Shown in pieces: positions 1,617 to 21,385 of a stretch of 22,032 nucleotides of DNA. The first letter of the stretch is position 1. Every line of letters starts with the position of its first letter. The notes below the pieces were generated by a model, which was not told the origin of the DNA, did not search any database, and saw nothing but the letters and a program-made list of their open reading frames with translations. The position numbers and the translations under genes are program-made. Origin of the DNA: a virus. The stretch lies in IMG/VR virus record IMGVR_UViG_3300025584_000027, one strand, 5' to 3'.

Positions 1617-1624
1617 TGTATAAG

Positions 1625-1960
1625 TGTGGGAAGAAACCCCTGGGAAAGTCTGATGGCTACCGAGCCTGAAGTCTTTAGATTAGGGGTTGGTAACCCCGAA
1701 ATCTTTGAGGGTACCACCCTCACTCTAGGATTGATTGGTTTGGTAACCATGAAGATCCGAAAAGGGTTCATACCCTGATAGGGCTGTAGTTCATACAGTC
1801 GAGTAGAGATAAGTTTCTACTATAAAAATCACAGAAGCGTACTGTATAACGCGCAGATTGTAGATATAATTACAATCGGCAGAAGCAACTGCCTTAACAA
1901 ACGATGCAAGAAAGCATCTAAAAACATCTATTTCTAATTTTTTAATTAGAAGTATTTTTT
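1625..1960 (+). ncRNA. Putative multi-hairpin structured RNA (about 330 nt)
   Basis: Own motif A promoter and terminator; GC-richer than flanks; about 12 short hairpins found by eye; only a 41-codon ORF (1653-1778) with a weak RBS. Confidence 0.65.
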
Positions 1961-1967
1961 TCTTTTT
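1929..1967 (+). terminator. Intrinsic terminator
   Basis: TATTTCTAATT-TTTT-AATTAGAAGTA hairpin followed by a T tract. Confidence 0.6.
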
Positions 1968-2013
1968 ATTAAAAAAAGATATACGCCCATATAATAGAGC
2001 GTATATTATTAAA

Positions 2014-7277: not shown

Positions 7278-7708
7278 TTAACCTCCACATCTTCCGGTAC
7301 CCAAGTTCTTTCTTCCATAGAGTATTTTTCTGTATTTTCTAAATTAACCAATCTAGAAAGTAGGTCATAACAAATGACTGCCATGATTACTTTTAAATTT
7401 TCTAATTTGAATTTTATCTTATAATCATCTAAAATTTCATCAATAGCATTATATTCTTCTTCTACAAACAGTTCAGTCTGTTCAAGAAATTGACGACAAT
7501 CAACATTCTTAAATCTTTTATTCATAACATGTCTATAAGCATCACTACGACATTCAGCAATTATTTTTTCAACACCATCTATTTCTTGAATAAAGAATGT
7601 CTTTTCTGGAAACTGTTCTTTTAATTTTTTCATTCTATTTTGAATATGCTCATAAGATTCAGATTCATCATTATCTACATAAGAACATATTTTATATTTG
7701 TTATTCAT
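7274..7708 (-). CDS. Hypothetical protein
   Basis: AAGGAG RBS; 144 aa. Confidence 0.75.
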   Translation of the reverse strand: MNNKYKICSYVDNDESESYEHIQNRMKKLKEQFPEKTFFIQEIDGVEKIIAECRSDAYRHVMNKRFKNVDCRQFLEQTELFVEEEYNAIDEILDDYKIKFKLENLKVIMAVICYDLLSRLVNLENTEKYSMEERTWVPEDVEVK

Positions 7709-11442: not shown

Positions 11443-11469
11443 AAATAAAGATCACTCGTTTGAGTGACC
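11443..11469 (-). terminator. Intrinsic terminator
   Basis: GGUCACUC-AAAC-GAGUGAUC followed by UUUAUUUU. Confidence 0.65.
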
Positions 11470-11516
11470 GATAGGCATATTTATATCCGCGTACCCATCC
11501 AATGGCGCGGATTTAT

Positions 11517-11789
11517 TCAATGACCTGGTTGTCGTTCCCCATAACCACCGAAGTGGTTGACGGAGTTTATTTGTTTTTTGCTGGCTCCAATTTCTTGGAG
11601 CTTTTTCTTCATTTTTGTCCAGTTTTTTCCCTGGGCGAACCCGGGGAGTGTCATGACAATACCCCTGAAGGACGAGGCATCGTTACTATTCGTCGCGTAC
11701 AGGATCAGTGACGAGTAAACTCGCCTCTTCTCATCTTCGCCCTCTTGAATGTCCAAAAGGGTGATGTTCATTTCTTTTAAATCTATCAT
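11517..11789 (-). CDS. Hypothetical protein
   Basis: AAGGAG RBS; stands alone between its own promoter and terminator. Confidence 0.75.
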   Translation of the reverse strand: MIDLKEMNITLLDIQEGEDEKRRVYSSLILYATNSNDASSFRGIVMTLPGFAQGKNWTKMKKKLQEIGASKKQINSVNHFGGYGERQPGH

Positions 11790-11838
11790 AACTGTTTCTC
11801 CTTGTCTAGTAGTTTAAATAGGTTGTAACATATTATTA

Positions 11839-11862
11839 ATTTCTATATTAAAATCGAGAATA
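11839..11862 (-). promoter_or_regulatory. Motif A (exact consensus)
   Basis: ATTTCTATATTAAAATCGAGAATA. Confidence 0.8.
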
Positions 11863-11870
11863 CAAGAAAA

Positions 11871-11947
11871 AGAGGGGAGTTGGATTCGAACCAACAATCT
11901 CTCAATTCTTAAAAAATCGAGTGAGATTCCAATTACTCCACCCCCTC
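11871..11947 (-). tRNA. tRNA-like gene with an 11-nt anticodon loop (isotype ambiguous: Lys-UUU with a 4-nt insertion, or UUA with a 7-bp stem); CCA not encoded
   Basis: Acceptor stem GAGGGGG/UCCCCUC, U8, D arm GAG/CUC with G18G19, anticodon stem CUCGA/UUGAG, 5-nt variable loop, T arm GUUGG-UUCGAAU-CCAAC. Confidence 0.8.
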
Positions 11948-11969
11948 TATTTGTCATATTGTTGAAATT

Positions 11970-11993
11970 ATTTCTATATTAAAATCGAGAAAA
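11970..11993 (-). promoter_or_regulatory. Motif A driving the tRNA-like gene
   Basis: ATTTCTATATTAAAATCGAGAAAA, 22 nt from G1. Confidence 0.8.
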
Positions 11994-11994
11994 C

Positions 11995-12030
11995 AAAAAA
12001 AATATCCACTCTCTATATTAAGAGAGTGGA
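11995..12030 (-). terminator. Intrinsic terminator
   Basis: Perfect 10-bp stem TCCACTCTCT/AGAGAGTGGA with a U tract on the minus strand. Confidence 0.75.
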
Positions 12031-12041
12031 CGATTTATAAA

Positions 12042-15684: not shown

Positions 15685-18600
15685 ATGAAAATTTCAAACA
15701 TAACTTCTAGCAGGATTTCATCATCAAAGATTGTAATTGATGAACCTACAGTTTTCTTAACCTTTCCTGATCCAAATCTACCTATTTGGGAGGTCATATA
15801 TAATACAAATTTTATTTTAAGCAACTGCGAAGCTATTATTAGTGCTGGTGGTATGATTAAATTTATGAGAAGAAGTTTTAACGCAAAAGTACACTCATTA
15901 GAATTCAAGAAAAAGATTATTGAATTAGAGCAAAGTAGTAAAAAATTAAAAGTAGTTAATAACCTCAAACTTAAAGATGCAGATAATAGGAGCGCCAAAT
16001 TTTACTTCTATGATATGGGAGTTTATTCAAAAGCTATTCAGGAGTTTGAAGGTAAATTTGTACCAAAAAAATTAGCTGAAGAATTGTTCATTGCAAGCGG
16101 CAAGATCTATAAGACGATTAAAGACAATTATCCTAGTTACAATGTCGAAATGCTTTTTCTTATGAAAGATGATAAAGGTTTTTTATGGAAGATGTTTGAC
16201 AATCTGAAACAATTTATTCCAATAAATAAACTTAATAAAATAGATTTCTTTGATAAGTTTTGCTACGTCAGCATAAATAAAAGATTGATCCCAGTTATTG
16301 AAAGAGAAAAGGGTAAAAGTTCATATCTAGTTAAGAACATGACTAGAATACCAAAATATGTAGAAGAAGAAAGTATATCTTCTGAAGAACAAATAATAGA
16401 ACCTGCTATTAAATCACATGAGACATCGATGATAACACCTCCATCTTCTGAATCATCTACTAGTACTAGTACTGGTACTAGTATTAATAACAAAGAATCA
16501 GACAGTCAATCAACAGGATTTAAAGGTGTTGTTAAAGGTCTTTCGAAAGAACTTAAAGTAGTTACAAATATTGATAAAGATGGTGAAATTAAAGTTGAGA
16601 TCAATACGCCTCAATTAAAAAGGATTTTAGCTAATTATGATATTAAAGATCAAGTAATTCTTTCGAATGTAAAAGTAGCTATTGATAAACACTTAACAAA
16701 CAATAGAGTGTCGAAAGAAAAGATGACTCGTGAACAAGCAGAAGTTCTTGTTCTTAAAGCTGTTAATAAAACTATTCATGGAACAGATGAACTTCGTGAA
16801 GCATACCGAAATGATCCTAAACTTCTATTTGATAAACTTAAAAAAATAGATAATTATAATACTCCTCTTAATTTTCCACAGTACCAGAACGAAGTGATTC
16901 AACCAAAAAACATTATAGATCTTGATTACACTAGTGGTCAAAATCGACAGAAGCATGAGTTCGATACAGTTGTTCATCAAAATGTTGAAAAACTATTTCG
17001 TATTTTAGAGGACTTTCCAGACTATCCAGTTAAGATTAAAAAGTTTAGTCATGAAATAATCGATACAGATAGTGATCGATTGATTCAATATACTGTTACA
17101 TTACAGAATGTTGGTGGTGGATATTCAAAACCATATGAGATTAAGCTTAATATTCCAGGGCTAGTAAGTGAAAGATATTTTAAAATAAAAGGATCTCATT
17201 ACATTCAGTCGAATCAACAGTTTTTAAATCCAATCACAAAAACTAATCCAAATGATGTTCGTCTTTTAAGTAATTATGCTATTATTAGTGTCCACCTAAC
17301 TAACTTTAGGTTTAATTCAGCTAATATTAGAGAGTATCTTAATTACATTAAAATCAAACATCCAACATTCATTAAAGAAGAAACTGAAGATTATGTAACA
17401 TTTTTTAATGGAGACAAAATAGGTCTTACTGGTAATCTCGTTTACTCTAACGCCGACGGAAGTAAGAAAGTAGAAATAGATCCTAATACAAATAAATTAA
17501 TAGATCTCGCGGGACGTTCTAGACTTGGTATTACAAAATATGAATATCAATTAGAATATCTTTTTAATAAGTTAAAAGATATAGACCCAAGTGAAACATT
17601 AAGTAAGACTAAGTTAAAGATACCTTATTTAGAGATATATTTAGGTGGTATAAAGTTACCATTAATCTTATACTTGTGGTCACAAAAAGGTCTATTAATA
17701 ACTTTAAATGACGAAAGTATTGATTACAGTATAACTGATAATAAAGTAGCCGATAAAGCTAGTTTTAGTATTAAAACTAATAAAACTCAGTACTTGAATA
17801 TTTTTCCCAAGGGCCTTAGACAAACTTGTATGGTGAATGGATTACTAAAGCTACAAGGTATTCTTAAAGACAAAAACATTAAAGATCTAAATAATCCTGA
17901 GAGTTGTTATAATTTAATCTCAGAATATACCGCCTCTAGTGGTTCAATTAAAATGATTACTTTGATGACAAAAAATCAAATTGATCCTATCACAAAAGAT
18001 TTACTAGAGTTTGGTGGTCATTCTACAAATTTAGTTAAACTTGTAAGTAAAGATATGATTGATATGCTTTTCAATCAACCACCAAGTAATCTTGCAGATC
18101 TATCTATTTATCGTACTCGTCTGAGTGAAATGATTTTTTATTTACTTTATAAACAAATTGCTATGTCTCATAATTATTATAAAAGTAAAGTATTTGGTTA
18201 TGAAGATCAAGAAGCAAAAGTTGAGTTACACGAAAACTATGTTATTCAAGGTCTTATTTCTGATGCTGGTGTTCTTCAGAATGACGAACCATTTAATCCA
18301 GTTCAAGAAATTGCTTTAGCCTCAAGAGTTATTAAGTCAGGCAAAGGCGGCGTACCTAGTAAATTTTCTTTTAAGACATCTCATAGAAATATTCATCCAA
18401 GTAATTATGGTAATATTTCTGCAGCCAGTACATCCGAATCAGCCGATGTTGGTTTGGTATCATATCACACTTTAACACCGTCAATTATTAATCAATACGG
18501 AAACTATGGTATAAAAGATATTAAAAGTCTTAAACCATGGCAAATACTATCTCTTGATGAATCATTAACACCTATGCAAAATAGCATGGATGGAGATAGA

Positions 18601-19548
18601 CTTGTAATGGCTCGCACACATGCAACTCAAATTGTACCAGTAGAAAATAGCGAGATACCATTAGTTATGACTGGTGCTGAACATTTAACTGGACAATTAG
18701 CAAGTACTAGATTTATTCAACGAGCTAAGTATGGTGGTAAAATTGTAGAAGTTGTTCCGAATAAATACATGTCAGTCAAGTATGATAATAATATAATAGA
18801 GAATCTAGATATAGTACCTCGAATAAGTAGAACTAAAAGAGGTAGTTTTATTCAGCTTGAAATGGATACCATGAAAACTGGAGATCTATTTAAGAAGAAT
18901 GATACACTCGCTTGGACCAAGAATTTCAAGAATGGTGTTTACACAAGCGGTAAAAACGTAGTTGTGTGTTTCATGAATTACATGGGATTTTGTCATGAAG
19001 ATTCATATGTAGTTACAGAAGATCTTGCAAATAAAGTTGAAAGAACCATAGTAAAACCAGTTAGTATAGTAATACCACCAAATGCTAAAGTATTAAATAT
19101 TATGGAAAAGAAAAATGCAGAAGTGTCTTCAACAGATGTTTTATTAGAGTTTACACATGATTTTGATCTTGAGAGTTATATTCAATCACAAGGTGATAAT
19201 TTCGATGAAGAAGATCTAGAGAAATTATTACTCAGTCAAAGTGAAAACTCAGTGAAACTTCTTGCTGGTTTATCCGGCGAATTAATAGGTATGAAGATTT
19301 ACTTGAATACTAAAAAAGAAATGGATCTAAAACTAGTCAATTTACATACAAAGATGGTAGCTGAAGATCGTAAGACTATCAAAATGTTGGGTGAAAATCA
19401 AACAAAAGATGGTAAGTTATCTAGCTTTGATAATATGCAAACTGATTATTTTAAGATTGGTAATCAAAAGTTAAAAGGCGGAAAAGAGTTCTTAGGAGCT
19501 CATGTTGTATTTTATATTAAAGAAAAGCATCCACTTATGTTGGGCGAT
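15685..19548 (+). CDS. rpoB: Phage multisubunit RNA polymerase beta-like subunit, exon 1 (1288 codons)
   Basis: Divergent beta motifs: YFKIKGSHYIQSNQ, IHPSNYGNI..ST.ES..VGL, DGDRLVM...QIVP, GKNVVVCFMNYMGFCHED; ends at LMLGD. Confidence 0.9.
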
Positions 19549-20536
19549 GAGTAATTTTGTCGCCATTACATGGTAACATGTAATTAGAAAATCTGGTGAA
19601 TTCGGTGAATCTCCTAACACTTTAGGATAATACCGAGCCAAGCTTTTTAGAGACTGCTAATCTCTAAACTGAAGGTGTAACGACTATCTCGAAAGAGAGT
19701 ACACTCTAAGCAGAGTGGAAGCGCCAGACATCCAAACTAAATTAAATCTAATAAAATAATGTGGAAGGAACAATATGACAAGACAATATAATCATGATCA
19801 TTTAATTGGAACTGTATATGGTTCATTAGAGGTTATTGGAATAGGACCAACGAATAAACACAGAAAGAAGTTATTACTTGTAAAATGTTTAAAACATCCA
19901 GAAGTAGATCCATATTATGTAGTGAAACAAAGTCTTGTTAACGGATCATCTAAAGGTTGTGTTGAATGTAAAAGAGATCTCCATACTACACATGGAAAAT
20001 GTAATACTAGAGTTTATCATGCTTATAAAAGAATGATATGTAGAATTAAAGATATTTTTGACAAAGATTATGAAAATTATGGTGGTCGTGGTATTGATAT
20101 GGACCCAAAATATGATCCAGATTATAATGATCAGGGATTAGAATTTGCTTTTAAAAATTTTTATAATGATATTGGAGATTATCAACATCCATTAACATTA
20201 GATCGTAAGAATAATAATCGTGGTTATTGGAAAGACAATATGAGATTAATTACTATTACAGAACAATCTCATAATAGAAGAAATAATACTTTTACACAAG
20301 AGATTGTTAATAATATTCGAAAAGATTATGATACAGGTAATTATAGAAACAGAGATCTAGTTAAAAAATATAATACAACTAGTACAAATATTAGTAGAAT
20401 TGTATTACGAAAAACTTGGAAATAATTTTTAATTATGTTTGGATGATGATATAGTCTGATCTGCATAGTAATATGCAGCTGATGTGGTAACCATTACACA
20501 TCGAAAAGGATCTAGCGAATCCTTTTGAACATCATG
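19549..20536 (+). mobile_element. Self-splicing group I intron (IA2-like), 988 nt, with a homing endonuclease in L8
   Basis: P1 GGCGAU/GUCGCC with a U-G pair at the 5' splice site; P10 AUUUU/AAAAU; P3 UCUGGUG/CGCCAGA; P7 GACUA/UAGUC; P7.1 and P7.2; P8 CAUCCAAAC/GUUUGGAUG; terminal G at 20536. Splicing restores GD-KICNRFGSKG in frame. Confidence 0.95.
19775..20425 (+). CDS. Intron-encoded HNH-type homing endonuclease
   Basis: HG...RVY...YGGRGI...F..D.G...LTLDRKNNNRGY..DNMR...EQ..NRR, typical of phage HNH-like homing endonucleases; located inside the P8 loop. Confidence 0.85.
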   Translation: MTRQYNHDHLIGTVYGSLEVIGIGPTNKHRKKLLLVKCLKHPEVDPYYVVKQSLVNGSSKGCVECKRDLHTTHGKCNTRVYHAYKRMICRIKDIFDKDYENYGGRGIDMDPKYDPDYNDQGLEFAFKNFYNDIGDYQHPLTLDRKNNNRGYWKDNMRLITITEQSHNRRNNTFTQEIVNNIRKDYDTGNYRNRDLVKKYNTTSTNISRIVLRKTWK

Positions 20537-21385
20537 AAAATATGTAATCGTTTTGGCTCCAAAGGAGTAATTAGTAAACTAATTGAGAAAGAACAAGAAC
20601 CTTACTCAGAAGTGACAGATCTGAAACCAGAAGTATTTATCTCTCCAATTTCGATTTTTGGAAGAAAAAACATTCCGTTTCTTAAGGAAATCTATATCTC
20701 CAAAATATTCTATTTTCTACAAGAACAATGTGCTGAAATGGCGAAAATTCCTAAAACATCTACAAGTAAAATCATTAAGAAAATCTTAGGTGTTTATGAA
20801 TTATTAGCAGCTGAAAAAGTATATAAAGATGTAGAAAAATTATTAAATAAATCATCTCAATTAAAATTAAGAGCTGATATTAAAAGTAAAAAATTACAAT
20901 TAAGACTTATTATAGAACCGTTTACAAATGTAAGTATGTCTAGGATTAAACAAGCTGCAGAATTAATAGATATTCCTCTAGACGAAAAGGTTTACATTCC
21001 AGAGTTAGGTGCATATACTGATGTACCTGTACCAGTTGGTATTGGTTATTATCAATTTATGGAACATATATCAGAAGACGTTGCTAATATACGTGGAGCT
21101 GATAATTATACTAGTTTAACTAGACAACCCACAAAAGGTAAACAAAAAGGTGGAGGTCAAGCTGTTAGTGGTCTGGATATTTATGCTTTACTTTCTTTGA
21201 ATGCAGATAAATGTTTACAAGAACTTTTAACAGTAAGATCTGATGATCATGTTAGAAAAAGAAAAGTTTATCTAGATATTCTAAATAATGGAGAATTAGT
21301 TGATATGCCAAAAGACACCGGAGAAGGAGGAACTAAAACTCAGTTTGACCTTTATATTAAAAGTATGGGATTAGAAATTTCATAA
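20537..21385 (+). CDS. rpoB: RNA polymerase beta-like subunit, exon 2 (282 aa)
   Basis: KICNRFGSKGVISK, VGIGYYQFMEH, LTRQPTKG...GGGQ and ELLTVRSDD correspond to the C-terminal beta motifs. Confidence 0.92.
   Translation, partial: KICNRFGSKGVISKLIEKEQEPYSEVTDLKPEVFISPISIFGRKNIPFLKEIYISKIFYFLQEQCAEMAKIPKTSTSKIIKKILGVYELLAAEKVYKDVEKLLNKSSQLKLRADIKSKKLQLRLIIEPFTNVSMSRIKQAAELIDIPLDEKVYIPELGAYTDVPVPVGIGYYQFMEHISEDVANIRGADNYTSLTRQPTKGKQKGGGQAVSGLDIYALLSLNADKCLQELLTVRSDDHVRKRKVYLDILNNGELVDMPKDTGEGGTKTQFDLYIKSMGLEIS

Follow-up and report, generated by a model that had tools for sequence, protein, structure and literature searches.

A tRNA-shaped RNA gene with an enlarged anticodon arm in an uncultured large phage

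Background

Stable tRNA-like RNAs to which no decoding role has been assigned are made by some phages, e.g. the species 1 and 2 RNAs of T4 and RNA1 and RNA2 of T5. Enlarged loops are found in the frameshift-suppressor or quadruplet tRNAs (sufD, sufJ and engineered forms), which carry anticodon loops of 8-9 nt.

The phage tRNAs that escape host nucleases are tRNA-shaped and differ from the host type in the anticodon stem-loop. PARIS AriB cleaves tRNA-Lys and phage T5 supplies a non-cleavable copy (PMC11464382), and mycobacteriophage tRNAs carry substitutions in the anticodon loop (PMC10264068). With loops of 7 nt and functional anticodons, these tRNAs replace the host tRNA that is cleaved. The tRNA genes of the Lak megaphages contain unexplained "enigmatic" introns (Devoto et al. 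2019, PMC6784885); an isotype could be given to these genes when the insert was disregarded, and insert-bearing versions could be aligned with insert-free ones. The anticodon stem is consistently 5 bp long, and the exceptions with 6 bp (tRNA-Sec, tRNA-Pyl and mitochondrial tRNA-Ser(UCN)) have compensating changes elsewhere in the molecule (PMC7609411): a shorter connector, a small D loop or a 3-nt variable loop. These exceptions keep a 7-nt loop and a fixed anticodon.

Here we describe a phage RNA gene that has the body of a canonical tRNA and an enlarged anticodon arm, and we compare it with these systems.

Results

The gene and its parse

The DNA analysed (hereafter the window, 22,032 nt, about 28% GC) is from an uncultured large phage; related contigs that carry the same genes reach 285-315 kb. 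Among the genes of the window are those for the beta subunit of a multisubunit RNA polymerase, a ClpP-type protease and a Tad6-like protein; small ORFs are numerous, and the coding density under the standard code is about 79%. The tRNA-shaped RNA gene (77 nt) lies on the minus strand at 11871..11947. It matches the Rfam tRNA family RF00005 (11947-11871; 47.8 bits, E 1.4e-07, gathering score 29) and is the sole gene that ARAGORN reports in the window (11870-11948, minus, tRNA-Stop(tta)), so that the tRNA proposed from the letters alone was recovered by tRNA-finding programs as well. No further tRNA was found by tRNA search in the window or in the approximately 10 kb recovered on either side, and the RNA is therefore not part of a decoding set there.

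The sequence was parsed by hand with a pair table. Read from 5' to 3', the acceptor strand GAGGGGG (11947-11941) is followed by U8 and G9, the D arm GAGU-AAUUGGAA-UCUC (11938-11923), A26, the enlarged anticodon arm, a variable loop AGAUU of 5 nt, the T arm GUUGG-UUCGAAU-CCAAC (11895-11879), the second acceptor strand UCCCCUC (11878-11872) and the discriminator U (11871); CCA is not encoded. All features listed in the sequence-only reading (U8, A14, G18G19, A21, A15/U48, UUCGAAU, G53-C61, the discriminator U and the missing CCA) are present in this parse. The RNA thus has the 7-bp acceptor stem, the D stem, the 5-bp anticodon and T stems and the core nucleotides of a canonical tRNA; the part that departs from the canonical form is the anticodon loop, which is not a 7-nt loop on the 5-bp stem with an anticodon conserved in the orthologues. 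Right after the discriminator stands a U run (UUUU at 11867..11870, then CUUG), which is also found 3' of one of the homologues described below (L010) and, to judge from the sequence, is likely to be a region of 3' processing or termination.

The anticodon arm occupies 11901..11921. Its stem CUCGA/UUGAG (11921-11917 and 11905-11901) closes a loop of 11 nt, UUUUUUAAGAA (11916-11906; the plus-strand complement at 11906-11916 is TTCTTAAAAAA), as had been claimed. The arm can also be drawn as a 7-bp stem with a 7-nt loop UUUUAAG and the anticodon UUA, a second claim that stood; this is the fold that ARAGORN draws. The minimum-energy fold of the arm has 9 bp and a UUA triloop. The arm can thus be described either as the 5-bp stem lengthened by 2-4 U-A or U-G pairs or as a stem with an 11-nt loop, the two descriptions being equivalent. 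Five further assemblies from as many samples contain the identical arm; compared with the window over about 10-16 kb, they show 18-43 mismatches. Its identity in five separate assemblies excludes a homopolymer or other sequencing error, a possibility that had been raised along with the initial description.

No isotype was assigned, because the two best indications conflict. Positions 24-69 (anticodon stem, variable loop and T stem) weakly match a coliphage tRNA-Lys(UUU), with an E-value of 1e-3, whereas a tRNA-Cys of an IMG/VR phage is matched by the acceptor stem, U73 and the T arm. A reading as tRNA-Lys(UUU) had been put forward, but it is backed by this one weak match, the discriminator is U instead of A, and together with U73 the acceptor stem resembles a phage tRNA-Cys more closely. 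The identity elements for aminoacylation are ambiguous (U73, G1-C72, A2-U71 and G3-C70).

Promoter and cassette structure

An exact copy of a 22-nt motif, TTCTCGATTTTAATATAGAAAT, lies upstream of the gene (11970..11991, minus) and ends 22 nt before the 5' end of the RNA. In the leader between them (11969-11948) the A at -1 could pair with U73. The motif occurs 15 times in the window (0.01 expected), and every copy points at a downstream gene or structured RNA, small ORFs included. Since it is unlike a sigma-70 promoter, it is presumably read by a phage polymerase. The sequence-only reading had assigned the gene a near-consensus promoter of its own; a promoter of its own it has, in the form of the exact copy of TTCTCGATTTTAATATAGAAAT, but not one of the sigma-70 type, as a sigma-70 scan gave no promoter on the correct strand at the gene.

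A terminator-like hairpin with a T run (12004..12031, minus) closes the upstream gene of 427 aa, which makes the tRNA-shaped gene a transcription unit of its own. A second exact copy of the motif (11839..11860, minus) precedes the next gene, a 90-aa ORF at 11789-11517, and with the copies at 11991-11970 and 11860-11839 the tRNA forms a promoter-flanked cassette. When the window (11452-11830) is compared with the closely related locus L020 (815-1169), unrelated genes, the 90-aa ORF and a 67-aa ORF, respectively, are seen between the promoter copies, with flanks that can be aligned. It seems that single-gene cassettes recombine at the promoter repeats.

Homologues and covariation

Clear homologous sequences number three (the window, L020 and L010), to which one doubtful case (L013) may be added. 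L020 was found by an exact-pattern scan of JGI metagenomes; its tRNA cassette is 97.6% identical to that of the window, and the flanks are 86% identical. L010 has a polymerase beta subunit that is 68% identical, and its homologue lies at 9288-9207. The promoter motif is found upstream of the homologues in both L020 and L010.

Pairs were counted by script on a manual parse of the three sequences, since MAFFT put the 3' strand of the anticodon stem in the wrong place. None of the 20 Watson-Crick or wobble stem pairs is lost in any of the three RNAs, and pair 13-22 is U-U in each of them. Double (compensatory) changes affect five pairs (5-68, 11-24, 12-23, 29-41 and 31-39) and one-sided changes two (7-66 and 30-40). 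Pair 31-39 occurs in three states (A-U, G-C and U-A), the compensatory change from A-U to G-C being that of L020, and the tertiary 15-48 pair covaries from A/U to G/C. The compensatory stem changes and the covarying 15-48 pair indicate that the body is under selection for the tRNA L-shape. The suggestion that the RNA is not the product of simple decay is supported in the same way: compensatory changes keep the body intact in the homologues, and the promoter is conserved.

Conservation in a decoding tRNA is highest in the anticodon loop. In the three homologous RNAs it is lowest there: the loops measure 11, 12 and 18 nt in the window, L020 and L010, respectively, and have no anticodon in common. 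The loops of the window and L020 differ solely in the count of U, L020 having one more; the loop of L010 is UUAUUUUAUUAUAUCACA. A sixth U-A pair beside the canonical stem is possible in all three, and past this pair the arm is a helix in the window and in L020 and unstructured in L010. The isotypes that ARAGORN gives to the three homologous genes are Stop(UUA), Lys(UUU) and Asn(AUU), all of which are forced fits. The finding named in advance as speaking against an enlarged arm was that of relatives with a normal 7-nt loop; the relatives gave the opposite, loops of 12 and 18 nt.

The possible relative L013 (6477-6563, minus) is a tRNA-like RNA without a D stem and with an encoded CCA. Its T arm is an exact match to that of the window tRNA, its 3' acceptor strand is that of the L010 homologue, and its anticodon arm is long (11 bp, in two parts). 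Its neighbours are five normal tRNAs, and the IMG/VR phage contig that carries them all is unrelated and has 34% GC. Outside the matched 24-mer the likeness is modest and was reached by 31 of 2000 shuffles. An exact-pattern scan of IMG/VR gave L013 and one normal tRNA-Cys.

The closest relatives (86-90%), obtained by look-ups of neighbouring proteins, come from one JGI sample. In several relatives the tRNA is missing from the syntenic region, and hence it is dispensable for the group. An exact-pattern scan of GTDB genomes gave no homologue. A covariance model (R1), which was not ideal as its source alignment included a misaligned coliphage tRNA, found normal-sized tRNAs alone over 23 loci and five whole jumbo-phage records; the five distant jumbo phages have between 0 and 33 such tRNAs each, and an enlarged arm was seen in none. 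In the cultured-phage collection there was no match for the 601-nt region at E 1e-5. The 77-nt RNA alone gave partial tRNA matches to cultured phages at E <= 1 and nothing fuller, and the homologues of L010 and L013 gave none at E <= 0.01.

L010 contains a second tRNA-like RNA (7500-7668, minus) of about 155 nt, which was missed by ARAGORN and Rfam. It has a T arm and an acceptor stem GUGAGGA/UCCUCAC; the loop of its long arm is GGAUUAAGAAA, and additional hairpins stand in the place of the D arm (z-score -4.5). The gene caller had annotated a 52-aa ORF here. The motif UUAAGAA of the window loop also occurs in this RNA, and UUAAG occurs in L013. The heptamer is frequent in DNA as AT-rich as this (22 matches, 15.7 expected), and for this reason the shared motif was given no weight.

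Other features of the genome and its relatives

The RNA polymerase beta gene (15685-21385, plus) is in two parts of 1289 aa and 286 aa, split by an insert that carries an HNH endonuclease ORF (19775-20425). In relatives the subunit is unsplit (1534-1577 aa) or split elsewhere, likewise by HNH ORFs. A promoter-driven structured RNA at 1617-1970 (plus), with many short hairpins, has a folding energy of -116.9 kcal/mol and a z-score of -8.8 relative to shuffles, and matches no Rfam family. The Tad6-like protein (716-1132, plus; 138 aa) matches the Pfam family Tad6, a type I Thoeris inhibitor family, with 40.9 bits (cut-off 27); this anti-defence homologue is located in the same early-looking region.

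Downstream of the polymerase gene, QueC and PTPS (QueD) genes are conserved throughout this group of phages (L002:16579-17700, L010, L011, L012 and L056), and in L011 and L060 one PTPS gene contains a LAGLIDADG insert. These genes suggest a 7-deazaguanine pathway. In L010 a HEARO RNA (RF02033, 105 bits) at 22461-22679 (plus) adjoins a short ORF with an RRXRR domain, a locus that looks like an IscB-type element or a remnant of one.

Discussion

Comparison with described systems

Like the nuclease-escaping tRNAs of T5 and the mycobacteriophages, the RNA described here is tRNA-shaped, differs in the anticodon stem-loop and may be Lys-related. It is set apart from them by its enlarged arm, by the lack of a conserved anticodon and by a discriminator that is U and not A; a resistant tRNA-Lys of the T5 type has UUU in a normal loop and A73, whereas the loop here is enlarged and the discriminator is U73. 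With the Lak introns it has in common that extra sequence is found in the anticodon region of a tRNA gene of a large phage, but here the inserts are 4-11 nt long, no insert-free version was found and there is no common mature anticodon.

The frameshift suppressors are likewise normal tRNAs with an enlarged loop, and the L020 RNA can be drawn with a loop of 8 nt. On the canonical stem, however, the loops are of 11, 12 and 18 nt, and neither a four-base site nor the complement of the loop is enriched nearby. A stem of more than 5 bp is also found in tRNA-Sec, tRNA-Pyl and mitochondrial tRNA-Ser(UCN), but the RNA here has neither the compensation seen in those molecules nor their 7-nt loop with a fixed anticodon. 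The stable RNAs of T4 and T5, finally, depart from the cloverleaf much more than does this RNA, which keeps the canonical body.

A non-decoding tRNA look-alike

Our leading interpretation, which we hold tentatively and which draws on comparison of sequences, is that the gene encodes a separately promoted and selectively maintained tRNA look-alike that would not decode and may serve as a decoy for a host factor that targets tRNAs. The phage's own class of promoter would make a short precursor. With its canonical acceptor, D and T parts, this precursor would take on the L-shape and could be handled by tRNA enzymes, among them RNase P, the CCA-adding enzyme and one that trims the 3' end. The lengthened arm probably prevents decoding, as it leaves no normal 7-nt loop at the normal distance from the elbow; moreover, the connector, the D arm and the 5-nt variable loop are normal, so that the extra stem pairs are uncompensated. 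We infer from this that the RNA does not decode. It may instead bind a protein that recognises the body of tRNAs and act as its decoy or inhibitor; the protein could be an anticodon nuclease of the host or some other defence or host factor that targets tRNAs. What the evidence supports best is that the phage keeps, and would transcribe from a promoter of its own, a tRNA-shaped RNA whose build is not that of a decoding one. A decoy role is speculative; of the options put forward, a decoy or mimic agrees best with the comparative data. Relatives encode RNA ligases, which fits a conflict over tRNAs, and the window itself has the Tad6-like anti-defence gene. In the literature searched, no experimentally shown decoy with an enlarged anticodon arm was found.

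Stop-codon reading and frameshifting

One alternative is that the arm folds into the 7-bp stem with the loop UUUUAAG, whose anticodon UUA would read UAA and cause readthrough, frameshifting or a disturbed host termination; in L020 the corresponding loop has 8 nt, UUUUUAAG, and UAAA would be its four-base codon. This is the fold behind the ARAGORN call tRNA-Stop(tta), and the exact sequence recurs in the five further assemblies. The 7-nt loop of the window lineage is formally canonical, with U33, the triplet UUA and a purine at position 37 (A37), which argues against a non-decoding RNA. Nevertheless, the fold is not conserved: its loop would be of 8 nt in L020 and of 16 nt in L010, whose loop of 16-18 nt has no such arrangement. 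The anticodon is accordingly not kept in the homologues. In the minimum-energy fold a loop of just 3-4 nt is left. Natural decoding tRNAs with a 7-bp anticodon stem have not been described (PMC7609411), and no feature of the body compensates for the extra pairs.

The use of stop codons points in the same direction. TAA is the main stop codon and ends 23 of the 34 window genes, those for RNA polymerase beta and ClpP included (TGA ends 8 and TAG 3). Three genes that terminate in TAA are in frame with the next ORF, as might be expected for readthrough, but a separate Shine-Dalgarno sequence and ATG are present at every one of these junctions, and one of the pairs has homologues that are far apart in L010; the pairs were therefore rejected as recoding targets and regarded as ordinary separate genes. 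Thus, ochre suppression is unlikely, and the proposal of an ochre or readthrough tRNA finds no support in the homologues or in the genes of the window.

Frameshifting, which had been suggested as well, fares no better. The loops of 11, 12 and 18 nt are outside the 8-9 nt of quadruplet tRNAs, and no matching four-base site was found. The loop complement TTCTTAAAAAA, tried as an antisense or four-base target, has 8 matches in this window where 6.5 are expected, and no neighbouring gene in the window was found to depend on a frameshift.

A processed insert

It is also conceivable, though improbable, that the RNA is a precursor from which the extra 4-11 nt are removed after transcription to give a normal tRNA, as in the "enigmatic introns" of the Lak megaphages. 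Removal of UAAG would leave UUUUUAA (Lys, UUU), and removal of four U would leave UUAAGAA. The resemblance of the anticodon stem, variable loop and T stem to coliphage tRNA-Lys(UUU) would agree with the former product, but the discriminator U is unfit for Lys. The loops of the window and L020 differ in the number of U alone, inserts in phage tRNA genes have been reported (PMC6784885), and ligases are at hand in the relatives; on the other hand, no enzyme for splicing was identified. Both the sequence and the length (4, 5 and 11 nt) of the extra segment vary, and from the L010 loop no common mature anticodon is obvious. There is no bulge-helix-bulge in the arm, which is an unbroken helix in the window and lacks structure in L010, and the insert is far below the size of a group I intron. 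Across the loci searched, no insert-free allele was seen in any relative. The processed mini-intron of the initial description is thus hard to reconcile with the homologues.

A relic

That the RNA is a former tRNA whose loop was wrecked by slippage in the U run, and is now neutral or serves as a processing or termination structure between cassettes, would agree with its patchy occurrence among relatives, with the AU-rich loops of low complexity and with the loss of the D stem in the possible relative L013, but is very improbable in view of the five compensatory changes and the covarying tertiary pair across phages with 68% identical polymerase beta, the dedicated, exact promoter motif in all three homologues and a cassette that is more conserved than its flanks.

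Conclusions

If we return to the tRNA look-alike, a wider and more doubtful proposal is that such RNAs form a hitherto undescribed class of phage tRNA mimics. Its members would have a full tRNA body and a lengthened, variable anticodon arm, would be made from phage promoters, and would trap or blunt defences that recognise the tRNA body (e.g. an anticodon nuclease) instead of replacing the tRNAs that are cleaved.

The known phage tRNAs that act against host tRNA-cutting nucleases still decode. If the proposal is true, phages would have a second strategy, that of mimicry and not replacement, and one RNA of 77 nt would be a simple handle for finding the host factor concerned. For annotation there is a further lesson: as three homologues of a single gene were called Stop, Lys and Asn, "suppressor tRNA" calls in phages can be artefacts of a forced fit and not evidence of a changed genetic code.
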